The position numbers were made by a program, and so were the translations under genes. A stretch of 64,000 nt of DNA from an uncultured Alphaproteobacteria bacterium (GTDB taxonomy: Bacteria; Pseudomonadota; Alphaproteobacteria; Rs-D84): positions 86,263 to 150,262 of the forward strand of contig CAJOGD010000001.1 in NCBI GenBank assembly GCA_905233975.1. Reading direction: 5' to 3'. Positions 9,687 to 59,540 of this stretch are shown here, one piece after another. Positions within the stretch are counted from its first letter, which is position 1. Each line of letters starts with the position of its first letter. The notes below the pieces were generated by a model that saw only the letters and a list, made by a program, of their open reading frames with translations, did no database searches and was not told where the DNA came from.

Positions 9687-11006
9687 TTATTCACCCAATT
9701 TTTTAATTGATTCTGCCGACATCAAAATTTTGTATTTTGCATTAAGCAACGCCATATCTAATTGATACAACCCGTTGGACACATCGGCCAATTCAACCGC
9801 CGACGTTTGACCGGCCGCAAACCTGTCGCGCGAAAAACCATACGCCTTGGCCGCCAAATTTCTGGCATTAGTAAGTCCTTTCAGATTTCCACGCAAATGA
9901 TTATATTGCTTTATCGCATTGGTATATTTTTCCGAAGTAATCTTTTTAGATTTTTCAAAATCTTGGCGTACGGCCTCTGCATTCATTACCTCTACCGTCG
10001 CATTCGCCCGATTGACACCACCACTAAAAATCGGCACTTTCAGTGCAAGTCCTAAATACGCGGCCTGCTCTGCCCGGCTGTTAAACATATTTTTCAAATC
10101 TTTATCCATAGTAAAATAGTCGTACGCACCAACGGCCGCAAGTGTCGGATAACCATTCGCCCGATTTGCAGACGCCTTGGCTTCATACATTTTTATTTGT
10201 TGGTCTAACACCTGCCATTCCGGCGTACTGGACAATTTTTTATTTTCTATTTCCGGGAAAGATTCCGGAAAATTATCGGTCAAATTTAAGGGTTCATCAA
10301 TATCTATACCCGCAAGAATTTTCAACATTCTGTGCGCGGTGTCGCGATTAAATTCCGCATCAGAAAGGTTAATTTCTTTGGTCGCAATATCTGATTCAAT
10401 CTTTACCAAATTTCCACGATTCGCGCGCCCCGCACCGGTCAATTTCTTTTTTGCCGACACCGCATCATTCAAATTTTTCCGCGCAATTTCAACAATTTCA
10501 TCGGTCATTTTGGCCGTCCAATACAAATCAACGGCCGCATAGCGCACTTCGCGCATGACCATTTCTTTGCTATATTCACTCATCTTTATCGCATTGCGCA
10601 CACTATCGACCGCATTTCCAATTTTGCCAAACGTATAGATTGGTTGTGTAATCGTCACACCCGCCATAAAGATATTATCTGGGACATCTATATTTTCTAT
10701 TCCCGCCATTTGCGGAATCAGTCCACCAATTTCCGGTGGCAATTGCACATTGAACGAATCGAAAGGTTTTTCAACATTAATCAGGCTCATATACGTTGCG
10801 GTTCCTTCGATGTTAAACCAACGCAACGCATTTACCGCGTCCAAAGACGCCTGGGCCTTTTTTACATTAGCATCGGCCTTTTTCAAATCATGCGATTCAG
10901 CCATAATTTTTTGCACCGCATCACCAAGCGACAAATCCATCGCAAAACCGTCTATACAGCAAAATCCGGCGTATAGCGCAAAAAGACAACCAAAAAATTT
11001 ACGCAT
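9687..11006 (-). CDS. TolC-family outer-membrane efflux protein
   Basis: 439 aa with a signal peptide and repeated coiled-coil/beta segments. Operon context fits an efflux OMP. Confidence 0.7.
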   Translation of the reverse strand: MRKFFGCLFALYAGFCCIDGFAMDLSLGDAVQKIMAESHDLKKADANVKKAQASLDAVNALRWFNIEGTATYMSLINVEKPFDSFNVQLPPEIGGLIPQMAGIENIDVPDNIFMAGVTITQPIYTFGKIGNAVDSVRNAIKMSEYSKEMVMREVRYAAVDLYWTAKMTDEIVEIARKNLNDAVSAKKKLTGAGRANRGNLVKIESDIATKEINLSDAEFNRDTAHRMLKILAGIDIDEPLNLTDNFPESFPEIENKKLSSTPEWQVLDQQIKMYEAKASANRANGYPTLAAVGAYDYFTMDKDLKNMFNSRAEQAAYLGLALKVPIFSGGVNRANATVEVMNAEAVRQDFEKSKKITSEKYTNAIKQYNHLRGNLKGLTNARNLAAKAYGFSRDRFAAGQTSAVELADVSNGLYQLDMALLNAKYKILMSAESIKKLGE

Positions 11007-11460
11007 TATTCGACTCCATCTTTAACAGAATTTCATTCATAGATTTAAAAGAACGAACCAATTCTTCTTCGTCTTTTTTATCAATATCTTTGAACATGCT
11101 TGCAATCGCATTATGCAACATTTCGATAATTTCCGTTGCAACCCGCGTGCCATGTTCGCTGACCGAATACCACGTATTCCGCCTATCGTTTTCATCAACC
11201 GCACGAATAACCAATCCGTCGCGTTCCATCTTGCGAAAGGCGGTACACAAATTCGGCGCCGGCACAAATTCCCGCGCCGCCAAATCTTTTAATCGCACCC
11301 GCCCCCCAAGGTACAGACGAATCAGCAATTGCATTTGTGTCCGCGAATAATCGTTAAAAATCACCTGACTGCGGTTTATGCGTTCCGACAATTTCGCGAA
11401 CGCCAAAATATTCTTCCACATTAAAGAGACCAGTTCTTTATGAGCCATTTTGCCCCCCAT
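10999..11460 (-). CDS. MarR-family transcriptional regulator
   Basis: 153 aa with a winged-HTH pattern (LAAREFVPAPNLCTAFRKMERDGLV), sitting upstream of the efflux operon. Confidence 0.7.
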   Translation of the reverse strand: MGGKMAHKELVSLMWKNILAFAKLSERINRSQVIFNDYSRTQMQLLIRLYLGGRVRLKDLAAREFVPAPNLCTAFRKMERDGLVIRAVDENDRRNTWYSVSEHGTRVATEIIEMLHNAIASMFKDIDKKDEEELVRSFKSMNEILLKMESNNA

Positions 11461-11576
11461 TTGTTAAAATCGGCAATCATTATAAATTTTAACGATTAAA
11501 AAATCAAGACATAAAATAACAAAAATTATTTTATTATTGCAAAAATCATAAAACCTACTATAATCAAGACCACTTT

Positions 11577-11650
11577 TGGGGTGTCGTCTAATGGTAGGAC
11601 AAGAGATTTTGGTTCTCTTTATCATGGTTCGAATCCGTGCGCCCCAACCA
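11577..11650 (+). tRNA. tRNA-Gln (anticodon TTG)
   Basis: Cloverleaf TGGGGTG..GAGC D-arm..anticodon loop TTTTGGT..GGTTCGAATCC T-arm..CGCCCCAACCA, with the U1:A72 pair typical of bacterial tRNA-Gln. CCA is encoded. Confidence 0.85.
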
Positions 11651-11655
11651 GAATA

Positions 11656-11684
11656 AACAAAAACACCCTTTTGGGTGTTTTTAT
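11656..11684 (+). terminator. rho-independent terminator after tRNA-Gln
   Basis: AAACACCC-TTTT-GGGTGTTT followed by a T-run. Confidence 0.6.
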
Positions 11685-12070
11685 TTATTCCTGGGCGCAC
11701 GGATACGCCAGAGCGAAGCGCATGGCGAATACGCAGATGAACAATTAGCAACCGCGCAAAAACGGATATTTTTAATAGAGTTTTTGCCCTGCGGTTGGTT
11801 ATTGTTTATCAAGGCCTCGTGCGCATTCCAGAGAGCAAAAATATAAGACTTTGGCAAGTTCGAAAGTCATATTTCAATTTTTTATCTTTCTAAACATACT
11901 TTCGAACTAGCTATTTTAACGTTTTTACATTCGAACTAATAGAAACACTGGAAATCCAACCAAAAATCGCTCTAGTTGCTATTCTCGTTCAATATGGTTG
12001 TGGTGTGTGGGCGAGAAAATTATAGAAAATCTTATATTCTATGTTATTATAAAACAGAAAAGGACTTCAA

Positions 12071-18391: not shown

Positions 18392-19102
18392 TTATTTAAC
18401 TGTTCCATTTTTTATTGTTATGCGTCGATCCGCACGATTGGCCAACGACATGTCATGTGTGACAAACAACATCGCCATTTTATTCTTGCGCACCAACGAA
18501 AGCAACAATTCAAAAACCGCAACCGCGTGATTCGGATCCAAACTGCCCGTTGGTTCATCGGCAAGTAATATGTCGGGATTATTCGCCAACGCGCGCGCGA
18601 CCGCGGTCCGTTGTTGTTCACCACCCGACATTTGCGCCGGTAAATGCGATGCACGATGTGCAACATTCGCCGACTTTAAAAGCGTCATCGCACGTTGCGT
18701 CGCCGTATCCGTTGCAATACCATTCGCCAACATCGGCAACATCACATTTTCAAGCGCGGTAAAATCCGACAACAAATTATGCCGCTGGTACACAAAGCCC
18801 ATTTTACGACGCCGAACCATTGTCCGCATTTCATCATTCATTTTATGCACCGGCGTGCCGGATACAATAATACTGCCGCCCGACGGTTTATCCAATAACC
18901 CGACACATTGCAATAACGTCGATTTACCACAGCCCGACGGCCCAACAATCGCAACAATTTCACCACGATGCAAATCAAACCCACCGCCGGTTAGGATATG
19001 TAATGGCTGGCCCCCTTCGACAAAGGTCTTTTTTATATCACGCACCGAAAGGACGACTTCGCCCTTTTTCACCCGCGATAAAGAATTCAATATCGACGCC
19101 AT
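18392..19102 (-). CDS. lolD: lipoprotein-releasing system ATP-binding protein
   Basis: Walker A GPSGCGKST, ABC signature LSGGEQQRTAVARAL, Walker B ILLADEPTG. Lies adjacent to a LolC/E-type permease. Confidence 0.8.
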   Translation of the reverse strand: MASILNSLSRVKKGEVVLSVRDIKKTFVEGGQPLHILTGGGFDLHRGEIVAIVGPSGCGKSTLLQCVGLLDKPSGGSIIVSGTPVHKMNDEMRTMVRRRKMGFVYQRHNLLSDFTALENVMLPMLANGIATDTATQRAMTLLKSANVAHRASHLPAQMSGGEQQRTAVARALANNPDILLADEPTGSLDPNHAVAVFELLLSLVRKNKMAMLFVTHDMSLANRADRRITIKNGTVK

Positions 19103-19110
19103 TTATCTCT

Positions 19111-20364
19111 CTATTCGTTTCTCAACACCTCTACTGGGTCTGTGTTTGCCGCTTTCCATGCCGGATAAATCGTGGCCAGGAACGCAAGTGCAATCGCAAT
19201 CAGCGCAATTCCCAACACCGTCACAAACTCTACACGCGATGGCAATTCCGACAAATAATACAGTTCCGCCGGAAACAGGTCGCGCCCAGTTGCCCACTGA
19301 AAGAATCGCCGTATTGGTTCGATATATGTTGCAACCACCACGCCCAATGCCGTTCCGAACACCGCACCGATAACACCGATACTGGTTCCCGACAATATGA
19401 ATATGCGCATCATCGAACGCCGCGACACACCAAACGTCCGCAACACCGCGATATCTTTGGATTTATCCTTTACCAACATCACCAACGACGAAACTATATT
19501 AAACGCTGCGACAATAACAATCAACATCAAAATTAAAAACATAACATTTGATTCTACTTGCAACGCACCAACAAAGCCCCGATTTAAATCGCGCCAATCG
19601 CGCACAATGTATCCATCGGGCAAAACATCAATCAATACGTCGCGCACCGCGTCTGTATCATTCGGATTTTTCAAAAACAAATCAATGTGCGTGACCGCGT
19701 CACCAAGGTTCAAATATTTCTGCGCCGTTTCCAATGGCATAAATATATACCCCGAATCATATTCATACATTCCCATAAAGAACGATGTCATTACCGGATA
19801 CGACATAATCCGCGGCATTGTTCCAAACGCGGTCGGCGTTGCATTATCGGCGGAAACAAGTGAAACATTTTCACCCATATGCACCCCCAAATTCCGCGAA
19901 AGCGTTGACCCAATAATCAATTCCCCATCGCGAATGTCCGACAAATTACGGCCATACATGCGCACACCACTGTTGGTTTTCGTCATCAAATCATTCATGC
20001 GAATACCGCGCACCATCGCACCAGAATTTTTTCCATTCGCGGTCACCATTACCTGGCCTTCGGCAATTGGGACAATGGCGGAAACGCCACGCGCCACCGT
20101 TTTGTTTTCCAACATTTTTTCGGCCAAGAAATCATAGTCCGCAATTGCGCCGTCTTGGTGATACACAACAACATGACCATTCATTCCAACAATCCGCGCA
20201 AGCAACGTATCATGAAAACCGCCCATCACCGACATCACAACAATAAGTGTTGCGACACCCAACATAATACCAATCAACGACACCCACGACACAACCGAAC
20301 CAAACCCGCGCCGCCGCGCCGCCAAATATCTGAATGCAATTTTTCGCTCTAGCCTTGTGAACAT
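19111..20364 (-). CDS. lipoprotein-releasing system permease (LolC/LolE, MacB-type FtsX fold)
   Basis: 417 aa with a TM1-periplasmic domain-3TM layout. Immediately upstream of lolD. Confidence 0.75.
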   Translation of the reverse strand: MFTRLERKIAFRYLAARRRGFGSVVSWVSLIGIMLGVATLIVVMSVMGGFHDTLLARIVGMNGHVVVYHQDGAIADYDFLAEKMLENKTVARGVSAIVPIAEGQVMVTANGKNSGAMVRGIRMNDLMTKTNSGVRMYGRNLSDIRDGELIIGSTLSRNLGVHMGENVSLVSADNATPTAFGTMPRIMSYPVMTSFFMGMYEYDSGYIFMPLETAQKYLNLGDAVTHIDLFLKNPNDTDAVRDVLIDVLPDGYIVRDWRDLNRGFVGALQVESNVMFLILMLIVIVAAFNIVSSLVMLVKDKSKDIAVLRTFGVSRRSMMRIFILSGTSIGVIGAVFGTALGVVVATYIEPIRRFFQWATGRDLFPAELYYLSELPSRVEFVTVLGIALIAIALAFLATIYPAWKAANTDPVEVLRNE

Positions 20365-20377: not shown

Positions 20378-21709
20378 TTATTTCTTTAACCAATCGCGCA
20401 ACGCATCGCCAACCAACGGCACATCATTTGGAATATCCGCCGGATTCACAATCGACACAAGACGCGGCGACATAAACACGACAAGTTCCGCAAACGGACT
20501 TATCAATGTTTCCGGCGTAGTCACAAACGAATGCGTCGGAATACCAACAATCAGATAATTATCCCCTATGCTGGACGGAATGGTGAACGAAGACAATTCG
20601 CCATTACTGGTGCGCAAAACAATTTTTGCATCGATTTTATCTTTGCCACCGAAATCGCCATACTTTGCGGTTGCGCCAACAATTAAATCAGTTTCCAATC
20701 TTTCTTCTTTACCACACTGCCCAATATCAAACCGCGATTGCCAACCGTCCGGCACAACAAAATGCCCCTGGGATATAAGGACGACATTCGCCTGTTGCGA
20801 TAAAAATTCTTGCAACGTTTTCGTATTAACCTCTGGCCCAACGACCAACGCACGCCCGACAACACCGGGAATTGACATTTTGATATTTTTTTCGCCAAAC
20901 GCCGGCAACATATTCATCCATATAATCGGATTATCGGTCCGCGGATAAACACGATACACGTCCATATCCCACGCGATGACATACTTTTTGGACGATATGT
21001 CAGAAATGATTCGTGCAACCTCGCGCTCTGTCTGATAATTACCTTCGAATATAAGTGTATTATCGGACCAATCAACAATCACATTCCGGACATCGGCGCC
21101 ATGCATCGCGTCCAAAATGGCCATAACAATATCTTCGTCCTTTGGCATTTTAACAAGCCACTTTCCACGATTAAACAATTTCAATTCGCCAAGTTTCGCG
21201 TCATACGAATAATACGCCCGCCCAAGGTGCGTCATCAAATCCACCGCATCGCCAAGGTTTCCGCCCGCAATAGACCCGGATATTCTTTCAAAAATCTGTT
21301 CTTGCTCTATGACCGCAATATCCGTCCCCGAAAGCAATTTATCCAACGCGTCGCGAACAGTTTGCTTTCTAAAATCGTAATTCGAAACGGTCAGTTCCGG
21401 CAACGGGTCGCCAACATTCAAACGCACCAATTCAATCTTTTCGTCCGGCACCACAGACATAACCGATTGCGAATCCCAATCCACAGTGCAACGTCGTGGC
21501 AATTCAACCGAAAAACGACGCGCCGTATCCGTTGTGAGCGCCGCCTTTTTCGGAAAGATTGGCACAGAATTATCATCTATGACCAAACTATCAACAACCT
21601 GAACCGTATTATATTCCACGTTTTCTATATCTTTCGGATCCGTCACCTCCATACAACCGGCCAAAGACACAGACGCACATAGTAAAATAAAGTTTTTTAT
21701 TTTTTTCAT
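20378..21709 (-). CDS. lipoprotein, unknown function
   Basis: Lipobox LAGC in MKKIKNFILLCASVSLAGCMEV; 443 aa. Precedes the lol genes on the same strand. Confidence 0.55.
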   Translation of the reverse strand: MKKIKNFILLCASVSLAGCMEVTDPKDIENVEYNTVQVVDSLVIDDNSVPIFPKKAALTTDTARRFSVELPRRCTVDWDSQSVMSVVPDEKIELVRLNVGDPLPELTVSNYDFRKQTVRDALDKLLSGTDIAVIEQEQIFERISGSIAGGNLGDAVDLMTHLGRAYYSYDAKLGELKLFNRGKWLVKMPKDEDIVMAILDAMHGADVRNVIVDWSDNTLIFEGNYQTEREVARIISDISSKKYVIAWDMDVYRVYPRTDNPIIWMNMLPAFGEKNIKMSIPGVVGRALVVGPEVNTKTLQEFLSQQANVVLISQGHFVVPDGWQSRFDIGQCGKEERLETDLIVGATAKYGDFGGKDKIDAKIVLRTSNGELSSFTIPSSIGDNYLIVGIPTHSFVTTPETLISPFAELVVFMSPRLVSIVNPADIPNDVPLVGDALRDWLKK

Positions 21710-21727
21710 ATTATCCTTCCCATATCT

Positions 21728-22051
21728 TTATATATTCATCGCCCTTTCGAATTCTTCGAGTGACATTTCATAAATCGGCTTTTGCGAAGGCGTCACCCAT
21801 TCATGCACACCCGCCAATTGTTTTTTAAACATTTCCATCACAGATACAACATCTTTTTCAACACCCTTGGTTGATTTTAGCAAACGTTCACCATATTCCA
21901 CAACAAATTCTAATACATCGGCGGCAAAGAAGCGACCAACATAATTTTCTATTGGAATTCCGCCCTTTGACACACATATCGCAGACATGGTTTTTGCCAT
22001 CTGGTTATAAAAATTTGCCAACTTTATAAAGTTTTCAACTGTGACCGCCAT
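21728..22051 (-). CDS. hypothetical protein
   Basis: ORF trimmed to MAVTVENFIKL. No motif recognised. Confidence 0.4.
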   Translation of the reverse strand: MAVTVENFIKLANFYNQMAKTMSAICVSKGGIPIENYVGRFFAADVLEFVVEYGERLLKSTKGVEKDVVSVMEMFKKQLAGVHEWVTPSQKPIYEMSLEEFERAMNI

Positions 22052-22127
22052 CTCTTTTCTCCCAATGTACTTTTTCACATTATAAAAACTATTGCCACAA
22101 AAACGCAATTAAATTATAATGTGAAAT

Positions 22128-22508
22128 ATGAAAATGTTAAAAGTATTTTTATTGCTGGTTTTATGCGCCTGTGCATCGCCCAATGGGGGCAGTATTGATG
22201 ACGCCACAATCCTGAATTGGGAAAACGAATCCGTCACAATGGAACAATTTGTTCGCGACCACAAGGCGTGTTTGGGAATAACAAAGCCATCATATTTGCC
22301 ACGTTCGCGTATAGCAAAATTGCTTTCACCGAATCAAAGTGCGCGCATGCCTGACTGGGACGGTCTTTGGGTGACATTCCAATCGAACGAATATCGTGAC
22401 GTTGGTCAACGCGCACTGCTGTCCGTTCCGCGCAATACAACATCGCGGTCTGTGGGTTCTTATCGCAAGTGTATGTTTAATCGTGGCTATTTACTCCGCG
22501 CCACGTAG
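22128..22508 (+). CDS. small lipoprotein
   Basis: MKMLKVFLLLVLCACASP lipobox. Confidence 0.5.
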   Translation: MKMLKVFLLLVLCACASPNGGSIDDATILNWENESVTMEQFVRDHKACLGITKPSYLPRSRIAKLLSPNQSARMPDWDGLWVTFQSNEYRDVGQRALLSVPRNTTSRSVGSYRKCMFNRGYLLRAT

Positions 22509-22629: not shown

Positions 22630-23310
22630 ATGAAACGTAATCTTTGGTTTTGGCTGTATTTTATTGCCGCAATTCTGCTTGCGATATATTTTGCGACGCG
22701 GATTGTTATGGCGCATATGGGCTATGGCCCAACCGCGATGATAAGGAACGTATCGGTATTTGCGGATACAAATGACAAAGACCTTACCACTATCGTTGCG
22801 GCGGCCGGCATACCGTCCGGGACACATACATATGCAATAAAACTTACATTTGTGAACGAACGAATCGCCCAAACACACATTGCGCGTGAATCCGCCGTCC
22901 GACGTTTGGCAAATGGAAATTTGGCGATAAAGGTTAATCTTTATCGTGCCGTTGCCGAAAGAACAGACGGTGTAAACTATTACCAACTTTCTGCGGACGG
23001 CAAAGATATAAAAAATCCGTCCGCCACACGTGGCACCGGCACAGTATTGTTCCGCGGTCGTGTTCCAAACGAAATTGGCGAAATTACCAAGGCCGCCGCA
23101 AACCTTGTCGGCGATCTTGATTATCTTGAATGGATTGATAATCGCCGGTGGAACCTTGTGACACTTGGTGGAATTACTGTTATGCTGCCCGAAACCGACC
23201 CTATTGCCGCGATTGGAAATCTTGTTGTATTAAATAAAAAATATAATATTCTATCAAAGGACATAAAGGTCATCGATATGCGCGACAACGCAAGAATTTT
23301 GGTTAAATAA
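22630..23310 (+). CDS. ftsQ: cell division protein FtsQ-like (TM plus POTRA)
   Basis: N-terminal TM, POTRA-like IRNVSVF, and a C-terminal beta domain. Lies immediately upstream of ftsA. Confidence 0.55.
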   Translation: MKRNLWFWLYFIAAILLAIYFATRIVMAHMGYGPTAMIRNVSVFADTNDKDLTTIVAAAGIPSGTHTYAIKLTFVNERIAQTHIARESAVRRLANGNLAIKVNLYRAVAERTDGVNYYQLSADGKDIKNPSATRGTGTVLFRGRVPNEIGEITKAAANLVGDLDYLEWIDNRRWNLVTLGGITVMLPETDPIAAIGNLVVLNKKYNILSKDIKVIDMRDNARILVK

Positions 23311-23311: not shown

Positions 23312-25099
23312 ATGCGAATGATTGATTCTTGTTTTTTGTGTCTTGATATTGGGACGTGCGGTGTTCGTGGTGTTGCGCATCGCGTTCGAAACGCGGTAAT
23401 TGATAAATCCGCATATTATGCCATTGACGATTTTGACACTGTGTTTGCATTAAAATCTGTGGCGGACGAACTTGAAAAACAAATTGGAACGCATTTTGAT
23501 ACTGCATACATAACCGGAAATTTCGGAAACGCTTTTTTCAGTATATCTGCCAAGGAAACGAAATGGTCAACCGAACACAAAATTACAAACTCTGATATAC
23601 GGACGCAAATCGCACAAATTGATGCACCTGATGATTTTTATCCAATGCATATAATACCATTGCGATACGATTCCACAAAAATCCGTAATATGTTAACCCC
23701 CATTGGCCAGGCGGACACCGCACTTGTATCTACTTTTGCTGGGATATTTTTTGAAAACGAACGCATGCAAAAAATCCTTAGTCTTTTGCGCCAATCACAT
23801 ATTCAGCCTTCGGCATTTTACGCACCGCAATTTCTTTACGGAAATGTTCTACGAAAAAAGAAAACAATCGTAATGTTTATTGATTTTGGGGCCGAACACA
23901 CAACCGCATCCATTTGGACCGATCGTGGCCCGGTTTGGTATTCTGCAAATTTTGCCGGCGGCAACGATTTGACCGAAGAAATATCAACCAGACTTGATAT
24001 ATCTTTTTCCGAAGCCGAACGCATAAAGCGCAACACCGCCGATTTATATTCAAACGAAATGGCGCGTTTTAGCCCCGCGGACAGCGCATACGCTTTTTCT
24101 TGCGCCGACGTAAATGAAATTGTTGTTCCGTTTATATACAATCTTGTTGAACAAATCCAAACGGCTTCGGCCAAATATGTTGAAAAATATGCACCTTGCG
24201 AAATCGTATTGACCGGCGGCGGCGCACAATTAAAAGGCATCGTCGAATTATTATCTGGACGCTTTAATATTCAAATAACACAAACCGGCCCCGACACAAA
24301 TGTTCGCGCACTGGCCAAATATATATGGGATTCTGTCCGTCCGTACCGCAGTGCATATATTGCAAGATTAAAACGTTGGCAAAAAATCACGAATAAAATC
24401 TTTGGAATATTCCACCATCGCAAACAACCCAAGAAACAAAAAACATTTATCCCAATTATGCCAAGCACACTTTGCTTTGACATGGCCCGGCCGGAAACAT
24501 ACACCATGTTTCGTTCAGGCGGCATATCAATTATACACGTCGATATTATGGACGGGCTTTACGTTGACAAGATTACCGGTGGCATTACGGAACTGCGCAA
24601 CATACGCGCCGCATGGCCCGGACATTTGCATGTTCATCTGATGACGGACGCACCCGCAACATGGGCAACCGACGCCATAAACGCGGGCGCGGATACGGTA
24701 ATACTTTCAACAAACACCGTCGGATTGCGTCGCGCCGTCCAAATTGTCCGCACATCGGGCAAACGTGTCGGAATCGCACTTAATCCCGAATCTTCGGTAT
24801 CTTTATTAAAAACGATTCTGCGCGACATTGATGAAATTATGGTGATGGGTGTCGCGCCCGGTGCGGCGGGTCAAAAATTCAATATGAATGTGCTAAATAA
24901 AATATCCATACTTGCCAAAGCACGCAAAAAATACGGACTTAAATTTATAATTTCCGTAGATGGTGGAATAAACCCCGAAACCGCAAGACTTTGTTGGGGC
25001 GCCGGCGCCGATTTGTTGGTCAGTGGTTCATACCTTGCGCACGCCGCCGATTTTCCAATCGCTGTGATGTCATTGTTGCCATCGGCAACCGGTATTTAA
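23312..25099 (+). CDS. FtsA (actin-like cell-division ATPase) fused in frame to ribulose-phosphate 3-epimerase (Rpe)
   Basis: Residues 1-375 carry FtsA motifs LDIGT, MFIDFGAEHTTASIW, ANFAGGNDLTEEIS and VLTGGGAQLKG, then an amphipathic helix. Residues ~380-595 carry Rpe motifs (HVDIMDG and a TIM-barrel pattern). Single ORF with no intervening stop. Confidence 0.7.
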   Translation: MRMIDSCFLCLDIGTCGVRGVAHRVRNAVIDKSAYYAIDDFDTVFALKSVADELEKQIGTHFDTAYITGNFGNAFFSISAKETKWSTEHKITNSDIRTQIAQIDAPDDFYPMHIIPLRYDSTKIRNMLTPIGQADTALVSTFAGIFFENERMQKILSLLRQSHIQPSAFYAPQFLYGNVLRKKKTIVMFIDFGAEHTTASIWTDRGPVWYSANFAGGNDLTEEISTRLDISFSEAERIKRNTADLYSNEMARFSPADSAYAFSCADVNEIVVPFIYNLVEQIQTASAKYVEKYAPCEIVLTGGGAQLKGIVELLSGRFNIQITQTGPDTNVRALAKYIWDSVRPYRSAYIARLKRWQKITNKIFGIFHHRKQPKKQKTFIPIMPSTLCFDMARPETYTMFRSGGISIIHVDIMDGLYVDKITGGITELRNIRAAWPGHLHVHLMTDAPATWATDAINAGADTVILSTNTVGLRRAVQIVRTSGKRVGIALNPESSVSLLKTILRDIDEIMVMGVAPGAAGQKFNMNVLNKISILAKARKKYGLKFIISVDGGINPETARLCWGAGADLLVSGSYLAHAADFPIAVMSLLPSATGI

Positions 25100-25509
25100 T
25101 CCGCAATTTCTATTTTTCGTCCGTCTTGGAATTCTGATATATACACATGCAATGTATCATGTGGCAGAAAATCTTTCGCAATGTCCGGCCATTCTATCAA
25201 AGTAATATCGTTCTGTATCGCATGCACCAAACCAATTTCAACAAGTTCCGAAGCGTCCACAACACGATACAAATCAAAGTGCGATATTTTATTTCCACCA
25301 CTTTCATACGATTGCACAATTGTAAATGTTGGACTTGGCACCACCGTATCCGCACCACAAAGCGATTGAATTATCGTTCTTGCAATTTCTGATTTTCCCA
25401 CACCCAAATCGCCATGCAACGCAATCGTCACCGGCGCATGCAAAGTTTTTGCAAAATTCCTTGCCCAATCGCGCGTTTCATTTATATTTTTTGTTATATA
25501 TGTTTTCAT
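25096..25509 (-). CDS. tsaE: tRNA threonylcarbamoyladenosine biosynthesis ATPase TsaE
   Basis: P-loop GDLGVGKS; 137 aa, YjeE-like. Confidence 0.75.
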   Translation of the reverse strand: MKTYITKNINETRDWARNFAKTLHAPVTIALHGDLGVGKSEIARTIIQSLCGADTVVPSPTFTIVQSYESGGNKISHFDLYRVVDASELVEIGLVHAIQNDITLIEWPDIAKDFLPHDTLHVYISEFQDGRKIEIAD

Positions 25510-46101: not shown

Positions 46102-47004
46102 TTATTTACCGCGACACAATCCTAACTGTTTACGAAGTCGATCGTTTTCGTCAAAAAGTTCCCCACACACATCCAACAAATCTTCATATGTTACAACCGT
46201 TGGTTCCGGTACGCGTCGCATTGCTTGTCTTTCTTTTTTCTCTGCGATTTCTTTCTGTCTGGCTTCTTCTAACCTTTGGTTCGTCTTGGCCAATAACCCC
46301 GCCGTATATTCGACCATATCCACCGGTCTTCCATTGGAATCATGATACTGCTGAGAAGATATAAAGCTATTCCTGTGGTTCAACATTTTGTCATATAAAG
46401 ATTGCAATTCGCCAACCGAAAGACGTATATCCGGCATGCCCGCTATTCTTGCATAGCAAATGAATTTTTCTTGAAATTTTGTATTATCTGCAATCTTAAA
46501 CAATAATCTTTTCTTTTTATATCCATCTGTTATACGCAAACGACCATCACTGGTCCCATACAAAAATTGCTGACAAACCCTGGCAAAATGCGTTTCATGT
46601 CCACTACGTTCAATCTGTGGAAACTTTTTCCATTCACTTAATAAATAGAATAATTTTCTCTGGCCAACCCTATCATTCGGATTATTCAATATCATTAATA
46701 TATGACGCATATCTTCGACAGCATCTGTATTACCGATGGTAATGTTATGTTCATTAACCCGAGTCTTGCCCATCAACAACGCCGTCAATATGTCATAAGA
46801 CACTTTCCCTTTGTCCAAATGCGTTATATTTTTATAAAGTTCGTCCGCAATGTTCACTTTTTTTTCACTAATATACAAATTATAAATATCCGTTGTTCCA
46901 AGATTTTTTATAAACCATTCAAACGCCATTGGGGGAATTCCCAACGCAAATGTCAACAGGTCATATAATATGGGCTTTGGATTTTTGAATTCATAACGTT
47001 CCAT
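46102..47004 (-). CDS. hypothetical protein (300 aa), AT-rich, downstream member of the pil-like operon
   Basis: No TM segment and no recognised motif. Lies 45 nt downstream of the platform gene on the same strand. Confidence 0.5.
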   Translation of the reverse strand: MERYEFKNPKPILYDLLTFALGIPPMAFEWFIKNLGTTDIYNLYISEKKVNIADELYKNITHLDKGKVSYDILTALLMGKTRVNEHNITIGNTDAVEDMRHILMILNNPNDRVGQRKLFYLLSEWKKFPQIERSGHETHFARVCQQFLYGTSDGRLRITDGYKKKRLLFKIADNTKFQEKFICYARIAGMPDIRLSVGELQSLYDKMLNHRNSFISSQQYHDSNGRPVDMVEYTAGLLAKTNQRLEEARQKEIAEKKERQAMRRVPEPTVVTYEDLLDVCGELFDENDRLRKQLGLCRGK

Positions 47005-47049
47005 GATAAAACTCCATTTGTCGTATTTGATTATATCATATTTTTTTAA

Positions 47050-48120
47050 CTATGACAAGAACGCGGTGATTTGATCTTGCATTTGAAACGTGCCCAAAAC
47101 GACCCACGCAATCACGCCCGATATTAACAATATGCCAACCGTATTTAACGCGTCCGACACAGATTCAATTCTCCTTACCGAATCTTCCAAATATTCATTT
47201 GAAATATGCGACAGGTTTTCATCAAAATCATTCATATCTGAATACACCGACAAATCGCCAATCAATTCTTGGTTTGGAAAATCCATTCCTGTATTTTGCA
47301 ATGCGTTCCCAAGGTTATCGCCGTTCGCAATATGTCGTAATGTTCGATCCAAAATATCACGCAAATATTTATTCGCATTGTCCGCAATAACACGCATCGC
47401 GTCCGGAATCGAAACGCCCGCAGAAACCATTGCGGCCAACGACATCATCCAACCAACCGACACACGAATTTTATAAATACTCCATGGTGGTAATTTATCA
47501 AAGGTCGCACGCAAACGCCCCGACCACACCGGCAAAGAAAGCCATATCAAACCTATGACAACAACCAACACAAACGCCATAAATTTCCAATACTTTCCAA
47601 CCCAACTTGACAACCATATCAATGACGACGCCCCACCCGTCCAAACCATATTATCGCCCGCAATTTCGGCCAACGGCGGAACCAGGTAAATACCAACCAT
47701 CACAATTATACCCAACACCAACACAAACAATAATAACGGATATGCAATCGCACTGAACACCGCGCGACTAATTCTTTTTGTTGCGACAACAATACGACCA
47801 ACATTTTCAAGCGCGACAATCAAACTTGACATATTACTTGACGTCAGCAGCAATGTTTCTTCGGTTGGAATCCACCCACGTGTGGCCTCGGCAAAACTTA
47901 AACCTTTTTCCAAATTTTTTTCCCATTCGCGCATGCATATTGCAAACGGTTCGTTCGGTTTTGCACCACCATGCGATTCCGTCATTTGAAGTCTGTTTAA
48001 CGCATTCACCAAAGTGAAATCGTTTTTAAGCAATGATACCAACTTGCGCCAAATTGCAATACGCTTGTCCGTACTAAATCGACAGACCATTTTTGCATAA
48101 AATATTTCAACACTTGTCAT
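47050..48120 (-). CDS. type II secretion / type IV pilus inner-membrane platform protein (GspF/PilC/PilR-like)
   Basis: 356 aa. A cytoplasmic N-domain is followed by 3 TM segments with a duplicated-domain pattern. Sits 2 nt after the ATPase gene. Confidence 0.65.
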   Translation of the reverse strand: MTSVEIFYAKMVCRFSTDKRIAIWRKLVSLLKNDFTLVNALNRLQMTESHGGAKPNEPFAICMREWEKNLEKGLSFAEATRGWIPTEETLLLTSSNMSSLIVALENVGRIVVATKRISRAVFSAIAYPLLLFVLVLGIIVMVGIYLVPPLAEIAGDNMVWTGGASSLIWLSSWVGKYWKFMAFVLVVVIGLIWLSLPVWSGRLRATFDKLPPWSIYKIRVSVGWMMSLAAMVSAGVSIPDAMRVIADNANKYLRDILDRTLRHIANGDNLGNALQNTGMDFPNQELIGDLSVYSDMNDFDENLSHISNEYLEDSVRRIESVSDALNTVGILLISGVIAWVVLGTFQMQDQITAFLS

Positions 48121-48122
48121 TT

Positions 48123-49745
48123 TTAATAAACCCCTGGCCTATCCAATAACCCGACCCAGCGTTCCAATTCATCAACACCAATGATACCTTGCAACATCAA
48201 CGAACACGCCGCTTCTTTTAGTGTGCGACCGTCCATTTCTTCCAACCAATACTTTACCGCCGCATCTGTATCCCCGGCGAGTGCAAGTTTCAAAAAATCA
48301 CTGTTTGTTATAATTATTTCGCCGGCCTTGATACGTCCCATTGTTCCCGTTCCATTACAATGTTCACAACCCTTGCCACGAACATAAACCTGATTTAAAC
48401 CCAAATCACCAAACGCATCTTTGACACGACCATATTCCGCATATTCCGTATGATTAATCAGCCGTTCCCGACAATGCGGACAAAGACGTTTAAACAAACG
48501 CATGGAAACAAGTCCGCGCATCATCGTTTCTTCTTTTAACTTAAACGCTTCGACCCCCATATCAAGCAATCGCACCAACGCCGCCATCGCAGAATTCGCA
48601 TGCAACGTCGTCCAAACATTATGCCCCGACAACGCACCTTTGACCGTAAGTTGCGCGGCGGCCAGTGTTCGAATTTCCCCGACCATCAATGTGTCGGGGT
48701 CACTGCGTAATGCGGCGGCCAACGCTTCGGTGTATTCGTTTTCACGTTGTTCTTCGTTGGCGGTATTTATAACCGGAATTTGATGTGCACCAAAAATTTT
48801 CTGTTCCACCGGATCTTCAACCGTAATAAGGTTTATTTCATAATGATGTTCTTTTAACATCAAAACCATATTACGAACAAGTGTTGTTGATTTACCGGAA
48901 CTTGTCGGTCCCGCAACCACAACCAATCCCGTCGGGAAAGAACGCAGCCGATGCAATAATTTTTGTTCGTATTTTCCAAATTCTTGTTCGGTTGTAATGC
49001 TTTCAGACGGATTATCATACAACAATCGCATAACAACATACCGCGAACCGAACGCAACCGGATTAAATTGCATACGAATACTTAACACACCTTGGGGCAA
49101 ATACAAATCCTTGGTCCCGCGCAACGGTGTTCGCCCATCTTTTTGTGCCGATTGATATTCGTTTTGCGCATAGTTTGAATTAGAAATATCGGCGGACGCA
49201 AACGCGGCACGAACAAAAGATTCGCCCCACCCCGAATTAAATTCCAACACCGGTTGCATACTGCCATCTATACGAAAATAAATTGTTGTTTGGTCTGCAA
49301 CCTCTATATGAATATCAGAAACCTTTTGTGCGGCGGCCTTGGCCACAATATCGATAAAATCTTTTTGCATTTGGTTGTTGTAATCAACGCGCGCACGCGC
49401 ACCACCAACCTTGTTTTCTTGATGTTTGTATATCGCTGATAACAACCCCAGGTCCGAATAAAACGGCGCCAATATTTTACGATTTTTCTTTTGCAACAAA
49501 TCTAAAAACGCAAGGACACGACCATCATATCGATGTGTCCGCGATATAACAATTCCGCCACCCGAAAAATACGCCAATAACCCCTGGGTTTCCTTGGGCA
49601 GTTCAAATTCAGAACCGTTTGCCGTCAAAAGCCTGTTGTTTTCAGAAAAAAGATATTCAATTATATCGTTCGTATCGGACCGTTCCATTCCAATTGGTAC
49701 GGTCGGCCGTTTATCAAAAACGATATTTCCTGAAACATCTTTCAT
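48123..49745 (-). CDS. type II/IV secretion system assembly ATPase (GspE/PilB/PilQ(R64)-like)
   Basis: Walker A GPTSSGKST, Asp box, His box, and a tetracysteine CPHC..CEHC zinc motif. 540 aa. Confidence 0.8.
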   Translation of the reverse strand: MKDVSGNIVFDKRPTVPIGMERSDTNDIIEYLFSENNRLLTANGSEFELPKETQGLLAYFSGGGIVISRTHRYDGRVLAFLDLLQKKNRKILAPFYSDLGLLSAIYKHQENKVGGARARVDYNNQMQKDFIDIVAKAAAQKVSDIHIEVADQTTIYFRIDGSMQPVLEFNSGWGESFVRAAFASADISNSNYAQNEYQSAQKDGRTPLRGTKDLYLPQGVLSIRMQFNPVAFGSRYVVMRLLYDNPSESITTEQEFGKYEQKLLHRLRSFPTGLVVVAGPTSSGKSTTLVRNMVLMLKEHHYEINLITVEDPVEQKIFGAHQIPVINTANEEQRENEYTEALAAALRSDPDTLMVGEIRTLAAAQLTVKGALSGHNVWTTLHANSAMAALVRLLDMGVEAFKLKEETMMRGLVSMRLFKRLCPHCRERLINHTEYAEYGRVKDAFGDLGLNQVYVRGKGCEHCNGTGTMGRIKAGEIIITNSDFLKLALAGDTDAAVKYWLEEMDGRTLKEAACSLMLQGIIGVDELERWVGLLDRPGVY

Positions 49746-49748
49746 TTC

Positions 49749-50441
49749 TTAATTACCATTCGCAACATTTAATGTTTGTATTTCACCATCTTTGGAAAAC
49801 ACCACACCTTCGTCCAACGATATAGATTTGACCGTATATCCATCAAGTTCTTTGCCAACACTCAATTTTTTATTTTGTCCGTTGGCCAAATCTTGAACGG
49901 TTGCCTGTAATTGCGCGCCGGCACCAAACACATTAATAAGTTTGTATCTTTTTTCTATTTCTTGGGGCAAACTTGGTTGTTCCGGGGCCGCATAAACCGG
50001 CTGCGCGGGCGCATATGTTGCCGCCGGCGCCGGATTCGCCGTTTTATTAGATAACGCTTCGCGTTCGTTTTCCAAACGTTTTGCTTCGTTTTGCAAACGT
50101 GCACGTTCGGTTTCAAATTCTTGCTGTTGTTGTTCGGCACGTCCCGATAAAGTATCGATTTCCATATGCAACTTTATTTTTTCCGCGGCCAATCTATCCA
50201 AATCAAGATTTAATTGCGCGCGTTCCTTTTCCAACTGCATAAGGACTTTTTCTTGTTCCAAATCAGTAATTTGTTGAAACAGCGAACCATTAACATCGTA
50301 ATCTTCGACCGCATTTGCCGAAAAATCTTCATTCGCCGCAAATTCATCGACCCGGACATCTATCACAGAATCGACCGCATAAGACGCAGATGTTATTCCA
50401 AAAACAAAAGCGCACAACAAAAGTTTTATTTTATTTTGCAT
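49749..50441 (-). CDS. secreted coiled-coil protein with a C-terminal beta domain (PilP/GspC-like periplasmic component)
   Basis: Signal peptide MQNKIKLLLCAFVFGITSASYA, a long Gln/Glu/Arg-rich coiled-coil, and a C-terminal ~80 aa domain (KRYKLINVFGAG..). Overlaps the upstream gene by 11 nt. Confidence 0.45.
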   Translation of the reverse strand: MQNKIKLLLCAFVFGITSASYAVDSVIDVRVDEFAANEDFSANAVEDYDVNGSLFQQITDLEQEKVLMQLEKERAQLNLDLDRLAAEKIKLHMEIDTLSGRAEQQQQEFETERARLQNEAKRLENEREALSNKTANPAPAATYAPAQPVYAAPEQPSLPQEIEKRYKLINVFGAGAQLQATVQDLANGQNKKLSVGKELDGYTVKSISLDEGVVFSKDGEIQTLNVANGN

Positions 50442-51693
50442 AGATTATCACCTCATAGTTCCACATTTTTCTGGTGGCATTCCACGACACCTTGGTCATA
50501 TACACACCACCAAAATCTTCGAATATCGTCATGAATTGTTCCGGTATCAGTTTTGATTCCGCGGACACACCGACGAAAAGCACATCTTTTGAATCCCGAC
50601 CATTTGACACAACATCAACCATTGACACAACTTCTGCGTCCATGTTTATAGATTGAAAGCGACTTGTTAATTCACGCACCATCGTTTCAGTATCGCGTTC
50701 ATCATACGATTGCGATAATACGCGTTCCGGCAATTTTGCACGAACGATTACTTCGTTGTCATTCACTTCTTGGACAAACACCCCTGGCATCACATCGCCG
50801 GCTATGTTGTAAAAATCATCTAATGTTCCAAAAGACCGCTTAAACGTTGCCGTCACATGCGATTTACCACATTCAACCACAGTTTGGTTCCAACCCGCGA
50901 TTTGTTGCATCAAAAACCCAATCGCACGATAGCACAAATCCGCACGTTCTTCCGGATTTGGCAAAGAATCATACGGCATAACTATTGGTTGATATTCCGG
51001 TTCTTGCCTTATCTCAAATTCTTTATCTAATTCTTTTTCTTTCTCTTCTATCTGTCTTTTATATTCAGCCGCCAATTCAGGATTTATCTTTGCCATTTGT
51101 GGTTTCGGCGCAAAAACTTGATTTATCGGTTCACGAAAGAAATATAAAACAACGAACACAAACGCGGCGAACAAAACCGTTGACATTATACTTCTTGCGA
51201 ACAAACTTATCGGGTGCAAAACCGAATGCACACGCCCAGAAAGCAATTCCATTAAATTACGTTCAACCGCACGCGGCATTCCCCAATCCGCCGGTGCAAA
51301 CGAAGCATTCCAATCAGGAATTTCGTTCAATTCGGCATATTTTTCGCGCGCACTGTCTTCGTCATCAAATAACAAATCGTGCAAAATGACACCGTTTCGC
51401 ACCGCAACAAGAACGTATTTATTATCAACCCTAAATGCGCCCAACATCGAAGAATATCCCGGCAGCGCATTAATAATTTCAATCGCAATAGATGGCATTC
51501 CGGAACGATGCCCCTTGGCCCGCGCACCCAAACCAACCATTTCATTATATCGTATATAAAGGTTCAAATGTTTGTCTATGCCGTTTGCCAATTTTTGTGC
51601 ATACGCGCGCGTCGTAAAGCCAGACACCATCGGTTGCCATATCAATTCCGATGCATATTTTTTTCTTTTAATATGAACATATTGACCCGACAA
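50431..51693 (-). CDS. bitopic inner-membrane assembly protein (PilO(R64)/BfpC/GspL-like topology)
   Basis: 420 aa: a ~165 aa cytoplasmic domain, a single TM (SIMSTVLFAAFVFVVLYFF), and a ~235 aa periplasmic domain. First gene of the operon. Confidence 0.5.
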   Translation of the reverse strand: MSGQYVHIKRKKYASELIWQPMVSGFTTRAYAQKLANGIDKHLNLYIRYNEMVGLGARAKGHRSGMPSIAIEIINALPGYSSMLGAFRVDNKYVLVAVRNGVILHDLLFDDEDSAREKYAELNEIPDWNASFAPADWGMPRAVERNLMELLSGRVHSVLHPISLFARSIMSTVLFAAFVFVVLYFFREPINQVFAPKPQMAKINPELAAEYKRQIEEKEKELDKEFEIRQEPEYQPIVMPYDSLPNPEERADLCYRAIGFLMQQIAGWNQTVVECGKSHVTATFKRSFGTLDDFYNIAGDVMPGVFVQEVNDNEVIVRAKLPERVLSQSYDERDTETMVRELTSRFQSINMDAEVVSMVDVVSNGRDSKDVLFVGVSAESKLIPEQFMTIFEDFGGVYMTKVSWNATRKMWNYEVIIYAK

Positions 51694-51767
51694 AATCTCT
51701 CTCCGAAATACTCCTGTGTGGATTATAACACAAAACGAACATTTAATTCCAGTGTAAATTATTAAAT

Positions 51768-51873
51768 AGTGTTAGTGTAAGTGATTAGTGGTTAGTCGTT
51801 TCTGGAACAAATCCGTAATTACGAATAATTCCAGACACTACTAACCACTAACACTAATCGCTTACACTAATCG
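51768..51873. repeat. MITE-like palindromic repeat, copy R4
   Basis: Arms agtgttagtgtaagtgattagtggttagt and ctactaaccactaacactaatcgcttacactaatcg. Interior cgtaattacgaataattccaga is shared with R3. Confidence 0.8.
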
Positions 51874-52286
51874 CAATTTCCGTTAAACGATGCGGCACAT
51901 GGTTTAATATCATAATCCGGCATAGGCCTATCGGCACGCGCGGTCTTTACGGCATGTATATTCGGACATTCATAAACATTTGCCGCCAAAACGAATGCGC
52001 GTTCCGGTCCAAACACAACCCATTCATTTGGTTTGGTCCGTTGGCTAACAATCCAATATGCGTTTCCTGGGCGCGCCTGGTCGGCAATACGATTTTCCAA
52101 ATAGCGTCTTGCGTCATCGACATCATAAACAGAAACCTCGGATTCTATTTTATACAAAAACACGCAACCGATTGGTTCACCATCAAGTTGTTTTATATAC
52201 TCACTGCCGTTTTCGTTTTTGATATAGCCACTGCACCCAGCAAGCGCACCAAGGCATAAAAGCAACAAAGCAAATTTTTTCATCAT
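51867..52286 (-). CDS. small lipoprotein (139 aa)
   Basis: MMKKFALLLLCLGALAGCSG lipobox. Confidence 0.5.
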   Translation of the reverse strand: MMKKFALLLLCLGALAGCSGYIKNENGSEYIKQLDGEPIGCVFLYKIESEVSVYDVDDARRYLENRIADQARPGNAYWIVSQRTKPNEWVVFGPERAFVLAANVYECPNIHAVKTARADRPMPDYDIKPCAASFNGNCD

Positions 52287-52301
52287 TTCCCCCCTGTTTT
52301 A

Positions 52302-53243
52302 TCACGCGTCTATTATATCATAATTATCCGGATTGCTAAACAGTTTTTTAAGCAGTGCATTATTCAACGCATGACTGCCCTTGTACGATTCTAAACTGCC
52401 GATAATAAAGCCACCGGACGTGAACATGTCGCCAAGTGCATCAACAATTTTATGCCGCACAAATTCGTCCGGCCACAAAATTCTATTTAACACACCATCA
52501 CCGGCATAGTTCAAAACAATAACATTTTTTTCATCTGCGCCGCGCGCCATACCATGTGCCTTAAGGTAATTCCATTCAGAATATTTTCCAAACGTCCGCG
52601 CGGCGGAAATGTTCCGCAGGAAATTTTGCCTTGACCATTTTGTATCATCAAAGGAATACACAAAACTCTGTTTTCCTATTATCGGTTCGCGATACACCAA
52701 TGTCGCCTTGATATTCAGCGCCCCATCATACGACGGCGATAACTTTACAAAACCATCAGACCGCCGCCCGTATAAAAAATTCGAAAGATATACATTCATG
52801 CGCGTCCAAAACGGCAATTTGCGTAAAACCTCACGCGCGGTAACGGTAATTTCTTTTTTCACAACGATTTTTTTACCCACACCATTTGTCACACCAACCG
52901 TTATAAGACCTTTATAAAAATTAACCGCACTGCCCTCTAAAATCGGCACTTCGGCACTATCAACATCAATCAGCGCACTATCAACCCCCGCGACAAAAAG
53001 CGCCGCCATCAAATGTTCAATTGTTTTAACATGCGCACCATTTAAATTGCCAATGGTCGTATTCCGCATTGTTGTATCCGAAACATTATCATATGTCGCC
53101 GGAATTGGTTCTTTATCGTCCAAATCGATACGACGAAAGAAAATCCCCGGCCGATCAAACGGTCGTATAATCATATTTACCGGCAATCCCGAATGAATAC
53201 CAACTCCGGAAAATTCAACATTATCTTTAACGGTTCTCATCAA
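52302..53243 (-). CDS. lpxC: UDP-3-O-acyl-N-acetylglucosamine deacetylase
   Basis: 313 aa with N-terminus TVKDNVEFSGVGIHSGLPVNMIIRP and overall LpxC length and pattern. Confidence 0.85.
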   Translation of the reverse strand: MMRTVKDNVEFSGVGIHSGLPVNMIIRPFDRPGIFFRRIDLDDKEPIPATYDNVSDTTMRNTTIGNLNGAHVKTIEHLMAALFVAGVDSALIDVDSAEVPILEGSAVNFYKGLITVGVTNGVGKKIVVKKEITVTAREVLRKLPFWTRMNVYLSNFLYGRRSDGFVKLSPSYDGALNIKATLVYREPIIGKQSFVYSFDDTKWSRQNFLRNISAARTFGKYSEWNYLKAHGMARGADEKNVIVLNYAGDGVLNRILWPDEFVRHKIVDALGDMFTSGGFIIGSLESYKGSHALNNALLKKLFSNPDNYDIIDA

Positions 53244-56891: not shown

Positions 56892-56938
56892 TTTTGTTTG
56901 ACAATGATAAAATATGATTTATAATTATTGCCGTTTAT

Positions 56939-57015
<77 letters not shown>

Positions 57016-57027
57016 GTTTAAATGAAA

Positions 57028-57053
57028 AATACACCGCAATGGTGTATTTTTTG
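57028..57053 (+). terminator. rho-independent terminator after tRNA-fMet
   Basis: AATACACC-GCAA-TGGTGTATT followed by TTTTT. Confidence 0.6.
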
Positions 57054-57196
57054 TTTAAATCTTGTTGTGGTCTGTGGTTTGTGACCCGCAACGCAGTTGC
57101 CGGTTCAAAATTTGTATATAAGAACGAACGATAGTGAAGTTCGAATAACTACAAATTTGCGCGCAGCCGGCACATAATGTGCCGCGCGAGCGAAAT

Positions 57197-57211
57197 CATC
57201 CCCCGCAACCA
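57197..57211 (+). repeat. direct repeat of the tRNA-fMet 3-prime end (CATCCCCCGCAACCA), copy 2
   Basis: Identical 15-mer to 57001..57015. Confidence 0.8.
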
Positions 57212-57330
57212 AAGTTTCAAAACTTGCCCTCTGGGGCAAGTTTTTATTTGTTTTACAATACATACATGAGGTTCGAAAGTTAACTTTTTGAAATAGGCAA
57301 ATTTTCGCCACTTTTTGAACTGTACAGAAT

Positions 57331-57984: not shown

Positions 57985-58052
57985 ATGCTCACCATTTTTA
58001 ACATTATCATTATATCTCAAATGTATTATTTTTCAATATAATTAAGTTCTAC

Positions 58053-59159: not shown

Positions 59160-59169
59160 ACTTTACATA

Positions 59170-59295: not shown

Positions 59296-59505
59296 TGCTT
59301 TTGAGCTATATTTTTGTAGTGTTATTGTTAAACCATCTAGGTAAAAATCAATAATTTGATTACGTTAGACTTCTTGCCCAGATGGGCATAAATTTATCAA
59401 TAAAAATGTTTAATATATATTCGGTAAACCTAATTTGTCTTTAAAAAGTCGTATTTCATGTCCAAATGCTATTAAATCCGTATAGTTATTGGCTCGAGAA
59501 CTGCA

Positions 59506-59520: not shown

Positions 59521-59540
59521 GTTAAATAATAAAAATAACC

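Follow-up and report, generated by a model that had tools for sequence, protein, structure and literature searches.

FtsA proteins described so far (TIGR01174; PF14450 and PF02491; PDB entries 1E4F, 4A2A and 7Q6F) combine an ASKHA fold, which includes a 1C subdomain, with nucleotide-binding motifs and a membrane-targeting helix behind the core that is generally amphipathic, as in Escherichia coli and Bacillus subtilis FtsA. In every FtsA known to us this helix forms the extreme C-terminus of the protein, and the only client that we know FtsA to anchor is FtsZ. Ribulose-phosphate 3-epimerase (Rpe; PF00834; PDB entry 2FLI) is a (beta/alpha)8 barrel, and the enzymes are dimers or hexamers in crystals. 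Here we describe a gene in which these two well-known families are joined. It lies in a stretch of 64,000 nucleotides (referred to in the following as the window) from contig CAJOGD010000001.1 (assembly GCA_905233975.1, positions 86,263 to 150,262) of an uncultured alphaproteobacterium of the lineage Rs-D84. The fusion is real and ancient, we found no description of it in the literature searched, and it marks a clade of genome-reduced gut Alphaproteobacteria; it is a variant that joins known kinds and not a new kind of system.

Compared with ftsA, the fused gene (ftsA::rpe) is alike in its position behind ftsQ, and its product in the fold with the 1C subdomain, the nucleotide-binding motifs and the amphipathic helix after the core. 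It differs in being only ~15-19% identical to the solved FtsAs and below the NCBIfam cut-off, in having no ftsZ next to it, and in the internal position of the helix, which is followed by a 24-kDa enzyme domain. Similarly, the Rpe half shares with described Rpe enzymes the complete barrel and all metal and catalytic residues, but has neither a start codon nor a ribosome-binding site of its own, and the FtsA linker takes the place of its initial residues. PilM (PF11104; PDB entries 2YCH and 5EOX) belongs to the same FtsA-like fold family and obtains similar Pfam scores, whereas the fused gene has ftsQ and tsaE as neighbours, no pilN/O/P/Q, and weaker NCBIfam and structural matches to PilM. Other fusions with a C-terminal Rpe occur as isolated clusters among the matches listed (P0291 with thiamine pyrophosphokinase domains, P0301 with PASTA, P0293 with PF01261; P and L numbers are our labels for proteins and loci), but they have no FtsA partner.

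We estimate the probability that this is a genuine, anciently fixed gene fusion, translated as one polypeptide, at roughly 85%. Both the list of open reading frames (ORFs) and the sequence itself give a single stop-free frame of 595 codons at 23312..25099 on the plus strand, and both halves of the 595-residue product are matched by Pfam and NCBIfam domains, in agreement with the first-pass annotation, which had read FtsA as continuing without a stop into a full Rpe. From 5.8 billion proteins, at least 120 clusters with 57-100% identity were retrieved, all of which carry both Pfam domains and measure 588-599 aa save for two entries that end early, one cut by a contig end (P0125) and the other frameshifted near its 3' end (P0121). 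In a scan of one genome per GTDB species, 371 stretches encode a relative, and the best 80 of these, which were taken further, are all full-length fusions. They derive from metagenome-assembled genomes (MAGs) titled Candidatus Enterousia sp., uncultured Alphaproteobacteria or Rickettsiales bacterium, with cattle, yak, buffalo, goat, sheep, deer, horse, chicken and human gut as hosts; a circular chromosome of 958,618 bp (OZ007020.1) is also among the carriers, as are OZ246409.1 (716,531 bp) and CACWNX010000001.1 (688,656 bp), which belong with it to the closed or nearly closed genomes. The same fusion in relatives, for which the first-pass annotation had suggested looking, is thus the rule: FtsA and Rpe matches share one stop-free frame in 87 of 87 sequences (86 related loci and the window). 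Moreover, each of the 80 genome loci has ftsQ directly 5' of the fused gene, including those with rearrangements among the other genes nearby; ftsQ has the same place in the distant loci L082, L084, L086, L087, L089 and L091, the order in L082 being ftsI-ftsQ-ftsA::rpe-rpmB.

The fusion extends far beyond these close relatives. When the FtsA half alone was searched against 1.84 billion cluster representatives, 41 reached E <= 1e-10; proteins of fused length (552-623 aa) reach down to ~25% identity, while ordinary FtsAs of ~400 aa appear at E 1e-13 and weaker only. The Rpe domain is present even in members whose FtsA halves are no more than 25-30% identical (P0143, P0144, P0147, P0149, P0156, P0157, P0169 and P0190). 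Across the window sequence and six close relatives (method of Nei and Gojobori; synonymous divergence, dS, ~1.1-1.2) the ratio of non-synonymous to synonymous change (dN/dS) is 0.07 in the FtsA core, 0.15 in the helix and linker and 0.04 in Rpe, so that both halves are under strong purifying selection. Loss of the stop codon is presumably ancient, going back to the base of a deep lineage of Alphaproteobacteria. According to a published survey, Enterousia belongs to the GTDB order Rs-D84 and has genomes of less than 1 Mb with incomplete glycolysis, and retains the non-oxidative pentose-phosphate genes except transaldolase, as well as MreB, RodA and MrdA; the survey is silent on Fts proteins (PMC12306168). 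Retention of these pentose-phosphate genes implies that rpe is needed, which we count in favour of a functional fusion.

A plausible history would begin with the separation of ftsZ from ftsA in the common ancestor of Candidatus Enterousia, Rs-D84 and the deeper 'Rickettsiales bacterium' MAGs, after which rpe would have been placed behind ftsA and the stop codon and spacer lost. The fused protein would serve both as the FtsA of the divisome and as the epimerase of the cell. The helix and the basic linker would anchor it to the inner face of the membrane in the manner of the C-terminal helix of ordinary FtsA, and the epimerase would consequently be tethered to membrane and divisome. Going by general TIM-barrel geometry, this tether would join the barrel at the N-terminal end of strand beta-1, on the face opposite the active site. 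As the solved Rpe enzymes are oligomeric, the Rpe domain may in turn make FtsA multivalent. Finally, since many lineages have no separate Rpe start codon or ribosome-binding site, the fusion would be locked in, or at least hard to reverse.

The Rpe half is complete. PF00834 (Ribul_P_3_epim) matches aa 382-575 with E 5e-42 and 143.9 bits against a gathering threshold of 21.1, covering profile positions 2-197 of 198, and the NCBIfam rpe models cover aa 382-585; the score for the equivalog TIGR01163 lies below its cut-off (152.2 vs 212.6 bits) and that for the subfamily model NF004076 just below (164.1 vs 165). The best PDB entry by sequence is 2fli (E 3.6e-32, residues 5-214 of 220), and by Foldseek the modelled half superimposes on the same Streptococcus pyogenes enzyme with a TM score of 0.92, a root-mean-square deviation of 1.3 A and 33% identity. 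The residues H409, D411, D414, H442 and D550 (HxDxxDG, HxM and DGG motifs), which correspond to the metal and catalytic residues of known Rpe structures, are invariant in the 80 close relatives and kept in 17 of 18 distant ones; the HVDIMDG motif singled out in the first-pass annotation is present at aa 409-415. With 74% mean identity and the lowest dN/dS, this half is the most constrained part of the protein. It is therefore a complete Rpe with its catalytic residues intact, and predicted to be catalytically competent.

One lineage departs from this pattern. In the AT-rich P0134 lineage (loci L091-L093; GC content 25.6% for the locus and 19.9% for the gene, fused gene at 10001-11770) the gene order of the window is kept and the fused ORF is intact, but Rpe has lost H409, D411 and D550 and FtsA its phosphate-1 Asp. 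Identity to the window is 30% for ftsQ, 28% for the ftsA half and 34% for the rpe half, against 62-75% for tsaE, uvrB, aspS, a lolC-like gene and two ORFs upstream (orf443 and the lipoprotein-like orf126); a small ORF upstream of ftsQ (50%) and an AsmA-like gene (35%) are the other poorly conserved neighbours. Between two strains dN/dS is 0.23 for ftsQ, 0.34 for ftsA and 0.56 for rpe, compared with 0.04-0.14 in five neighbouring genes, values that rest on small counts of 3-17 changes per gene. The ftsQ-ftsA::rpe unit is thus under relaxed or altered constraint in this lineage.

It is mainly on account of P0134 that we leave some probability on a non-catalytic role of the Rpe domain. On a more far-reaching reading, the epimerase domain might be an integral part of the divisome, setting the oligomeric state of FtsA through an Rpe dimer or hexamer or gating FtsA by binding pentose phosphates; the relationship between FtsA and FtsZ could itself have changed in this lineage, ftsZ being unlinked and not found. 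We think this unlikely, and leave it open because the fusion is kept in the absence of catalytic residues and because ftsQ, ftsA and rpe accelerate together. If it were true, central carbon status or the supply of lipopolysaccharide or nucleotide precursors would be physically coupled to septation. On another reading, FtsA would have recruited Rpe by co-option as a structural or regulatory module, such as an oligomerisation platform or a pentose-phosphate sensor, and Rpe would no longer be primarily an enzyme. Such a role would account for the retention of the fusion where catalysis has evidently been lost (H409Y, D411T and D550C within the intact 589-codon ORF of P0134), as well as in some deep lineages that have lost the phosphate-1 Asp of FtsA, and the solved Rpe structures are oligomeric (e.g. 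2FLI, an entry of 12 chains). However, dN/dS in P0134 is raised alike for ftsQ, ftsA and rpe, which fits a general relaxation better, and in the lineage of the window the invariant catalytic and metal residues and the strongest constraint of the whole protein give Rpe the appearance of an active, essential enzyme; co-option is accordingly judged distinctly unlikely.

The segment between the halves resembles the usual membrane-targeting helix of FtsA. AlphaFold2 predicts a long helix at aa 343-369 and disorder (predicted local distance difference test, pLDDT, <50) only at aa 369-377, besides the last three residues of the protein. The hydrophobic moment of KRWQKITNKIFGIF is 0.62, above the 95th percentile of the protein (0.51) and close to the family median (0.645). 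The first-pass annotation had noted a C-terminal amphipathic helix of FtsA, and the segment concerned (RWQKITNKIFGIF) is indeed found at aa 355-367, although the helix is internal here. Net charge around the linker is +5 to +7, at +5 in the window protein and with a family median of +6. The linker is the least conserved stretch (mean identity 30%), yet dN/dS of helix and linker together is still 0.15, the linker length is nearly constant across the family, and few stretches are as well conserved as the junction peptide FIPI[MLFY]PSTLCF.

Around this linker one gene might also yield two proteins, through a second translation start at Met383 or through cleavage of the linker by a protease; the fusion would then be no more than a compact encoding. 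The disordered linker at aa 369-377 is rich in lysine and arginine and in principle accessible to proteases, and position 383 is ATG or TTG in 52 of 83 loci. In detail, the codon equivalent to Met383 is ATG in 40, TTA in 25, TTG in 12, CTG in 4, and TTC and TAC in one locus each, so that 31 of the 83 have a codon (TTA, CTG, TTC or TAC) that is not a start; a Shine-Dalgarno-like 4-mer precedes the Rpe N-terminus in 1 of 83 loci, compared with 26 of 49 putative gene starts in the window. On these two counts an internal start at Met383 is rejected. Nearby, Met391 alone is conserved as an in-frame ATG, and it sits within the first beta-alpha unit of the barrel. The linker, whose sequence is 30% conserved, shows no common motif for cleavage. 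We regard two separate products as improbable and, because neither an Rpe start codon nor a Shine-Dalgarno-like motif is conserved, conclude that Rpe is in all likelihood made as part of FtsA.

The identity of the N-terminal half required closer consideration, as the Pfam families FtsA and PilM_2 both match it at aa 182-331, PilM_2 marginally better (E 2.6e-12 vs 2.3e-11). The half might accordingly be a PilM-like or other actin-fold scaffold and not the FtsA of the divisome, and some NCBI records of the family are indeed named 'pilus assembly protein PilM'; moreover, a cluster resembling type IV pilus genes (T2SSE ATPase, PAP_PilO) is located at 46-54 kb in the window. By contrast, the NCBIfam ftsA model TIGR01174 matches aa 43-337 with E 2.6e-19 (69.6 bits, below its cut-off of 175.85), while the pilM model TIGR01175 obtains E 4.4e-11 (42 bits, below its cut-off of 133). 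The Pfam domain SHS2_FTSA was not detected in the window protein but is recorded in the family members P0147, P0144 and P0285, and canonical FtsAs bearing this domain are retrieved with E 1e-32 to 1e-15 by a profile of distant fused members. In the PDB the best match by sequence is the FtsA 7q6f (E 3.9e-7), compared with E 8.4e-5 for the PilM 2ych. An AlphaFold2 model built on a 34-sequence alignment (mean pLDDT 90.3 for the whole protein) comprises two confident domains, with pLDDT ~90-97 in the FtsA core. In a Foldseek comparison with the PDB, ranks 1-19 are all occupied by FtsA chains (E 4e-23 to 1e-20; alignments of ~346-385 columns; TM scores up to 0.75 over ~384 columns) from Staphylococcus aureus, Vibrio, Thermotoga maritima, Xenorhabdus and E. 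coli, whereas PilM first appears at rank 47 with a TM score of 0.51. The gene always lies directly after ftsQ (after ftsI-ftsQ in L082) and never beside pilN/O/P/Q. We therefore consider a PilM-like identity very improbable; since modelled fold, homology and gene position agree, the N-terminal half is best taken as a complete FtsA that is too divergent for the curated equivalog model.

The nucleotide-binding motifs of this half are phosphate-1 (D12-x-G14), phosphate-2 (D191-x-G193) and adenosine (G302-G303-G304). Among the 80 Enterousia-like relatives D12, G14, D191, G193 and G302 are invariant, and G303 and G304 are present in 79 and 74, respectively; in some distant lineages the motifs are degenerate. 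In the deep lineages of P0143, P0144 (locus L084) and P0149, the phosphate-1 Asp is replaced by Tyr (IYFG or IYPG for DIG) and the H-x-D-x-x-D-G motif of Rpe is kept, a substitution which suggests that their FtsA half may no longer bind nucleotide.

Finally, it can practically be discounted that the fusion is confined to one assembly, be it as an artefact (a mis-join or a stop removed by sequencing error) or as a private mutation (a recent stop loss with non-functional read-through). Apart from the unusual architecture, this reading has in its favour that P0125 and P0121 show such errors to occur in MAGs, and against it the frame that runs uninterrupted through all 87 sequences, obtained by independent projects from different hosts, the conserved length of the linker, the highly conserved FIPI[MLFY]PSTLCF junction and a dN/dS far below 1 on both sides of the junction and across it. 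Of the three readings that the first-pass annotation had offered, a genuine fusion thus stands, while assembly error and private stop loss fall on the shared frame, the linker length and selection.

Several observations nevertheless weigh against a fused protein that is at once FtsA and epimerase. Divergence has taken the FtsA half below the NCBIfam cut-off for ftsA, and the predicted template modelling score (pTM) of 0.60 gives no confident geometry between the domains. The deepest members, P0156 and P0157, have a basic linker without a clear amphipathic helix, and membrane tethering through this segment hence does not hold throughout the family. In the AT-rich sister lineage of P0134 key residues are missing from both halves, so that retention of both activities is not true of every member. 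FtsZ, the anchor client of FtsA, was not found in the window or in the related loci searched. Lastly, a single ~66-kDa product, its epimerase activity, its membrane binding and its localisation to the divisome are predictions from genes and a modelled structure.

With regard to FtsZ, a regular expression for the tubulin signature had no match in the six frames of the 64-kb window, tblastn with E. coli FtsZ as query had none in the window and loci L001-L086, and the genes called in loci L087-L093 include none with a tubulin/FtsZ Pfam domain. These negatives span about -23/+39 kb around the gene in the window and +-10 kb in the relatives. The broken ftsQ-ftsA-ftsZ order reported in the first-pass annotation was thus found again, with no ftsZ in the window or in the 92 related loci searched. 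Because ftsQ, ftsI and a strongly selected ftsA are present, we consider on general grounds an unlinked ftsZ elsewhere in the genome much more likely than its absence. The division and cell wall (dcw) cluster of the genome to which the window belongs is widely dispersed: a Mur ligase gene at 60151-61470(+), ~37 kb away from ftsQ, stands alone without dcw neighbours, and ftsQ is preceded not by ddl or murC but by a LolCDE-like ABC system (18392-20364) and a small ORF of lipoprotein-like character. In two loci of distant members of the fused family, lpxK-lpxC (L081, 5821-7769; L084, 15905-17757) is located ~2-6 kb from ftsQ-ftsA::rpe, with tsaE also near. The gene that follows ftsZ in E. coli is lpxC, and this proximity may be a remnant of the ancestral ftsZ neighbourhood.

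The fusion has consequences for annotation and for the understanding of FtsA. The only recognisable ftsA across this lineage is labelled 'ribulose-phosphate 3-epimerase', 'pilus assembly protein PilM' or 'hypothetical protein' at NCBI and never FtsA, and automated reconstructions will consequently report FtsA as missing or mis-describe a pentose-phosphate gene. Besides correcting this annotation, the fusion provides an unusual natural modification of the FtsA C-terminus: as a natural experiment, it suggests that FtsA tolerates a 24-kDa, probably oligomeric enzyme ~12 residues past its membrane-targeting helix, which bears on how FtsA filaments sit on the membrane. The known links between metabolism and division use separate moonlighting enzymes such as UgtP, OpgH, KidO and GdhZ; if the two activities of the fused protein are functionally coupled, it would constitute a physical link between central metabolism and the divisome, and it is in any case a testable candidate for one. 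As a clean shared derived character, the fusion furthermore marks out a deep clade of uncultured Alphaproteobacteria with reduced genomes, and shows how irreversibility arises once a downstream gene loses its own translation signals.

Table 1. Coordinates of the ftsA::rpe locus and its parts within the window.
Feature	Position	Strand	Remarks
ftsQ	22630..23310	+	226 aa; N-terminal transmembrane segment; FtsQ_DivIB_C, PF03799, E 2.9e-7
ftsA::rpe, whole fused gene	23312..25099	+	595 aa; single ORF; stop TAA at 25097-25099
FtsA core, aa 1-345	23312..24346	+	actin-like ATPase fold including the 1C (SHS2) subdomain
Helix, aa 346-367	24347..24412	+	amphipathic segment KRWQKITNKIFGIF; presumed FtsA membrane-targeting helix, internal
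Linker, aa 368-379	24413..24448	+	polybasic, disordered; HHRKQPKKQKTF; low pLDDT, net charge
Rpe domain, aa 380-588	24449..25075	+	complete (beta/alpha)8 barrel; PF00834, 2FLI, Foldseek
In-frame ATG, Met383	24458..24460	+	natural Rpe N-terminus; start not conserved
tsaE	25096..25509	-	convergent; PF02367, E 2.6e-32; TIGR00150, E 2.2e-28

The stop codon of ftsQ is separated from the ATG of the fused gene by 1 nt (Table 1). On the other side, the TsaE models confirm the convergent tsaE that the first-pass annotation had named as the next gene; its end overlaps that of ftsA::rpe by 4 nt (25096-25099) with interlocking stop codons (TTTAA), which leaves no intergenic room for a terminator. Next after tsaE follows uvrB. 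No second copy of either the FtsA half or the Rpe half was found within the window, and Rfam and tRNA scans of it detected four tRNAs only and nothing at the fused locus. The interval between the LolCDE-like genes and ftsQ (20378-22508) holds three ORFs without a Pfam match, of 443 aa and 126 aa on the minus strand and of 126 aa, lipoprotein-like, on the plus strand. The same block of three is present clade-wide in nearly all related loci, and identities of 81-97% for the small lipoprotein compare with ~50-80% for the FtsA half.

Two further regions of the window lie at some distance from the fused gene. A run of ORFs on the minus strand at 46102-54921, which includes a T2SSE-type secretion ATPase (48123-49745, E 4e-66) and a PAP_PilO-like protein (50431-51693), looks like an apparatus of the type IV pilus or R64 thin pilus kind in a genome of less than 1 Mb, and may be relevant to the partner-dependent lifestyle that has been proposed. 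The stretch at 56000-60000, finally, has a GC content of 33-35%, compared with ~44% elsewhere, adjoins a tRNA-Met gene (56939-57015) and encodes a Fic/DOC-domain protein (58053-59159); it may represent an island.

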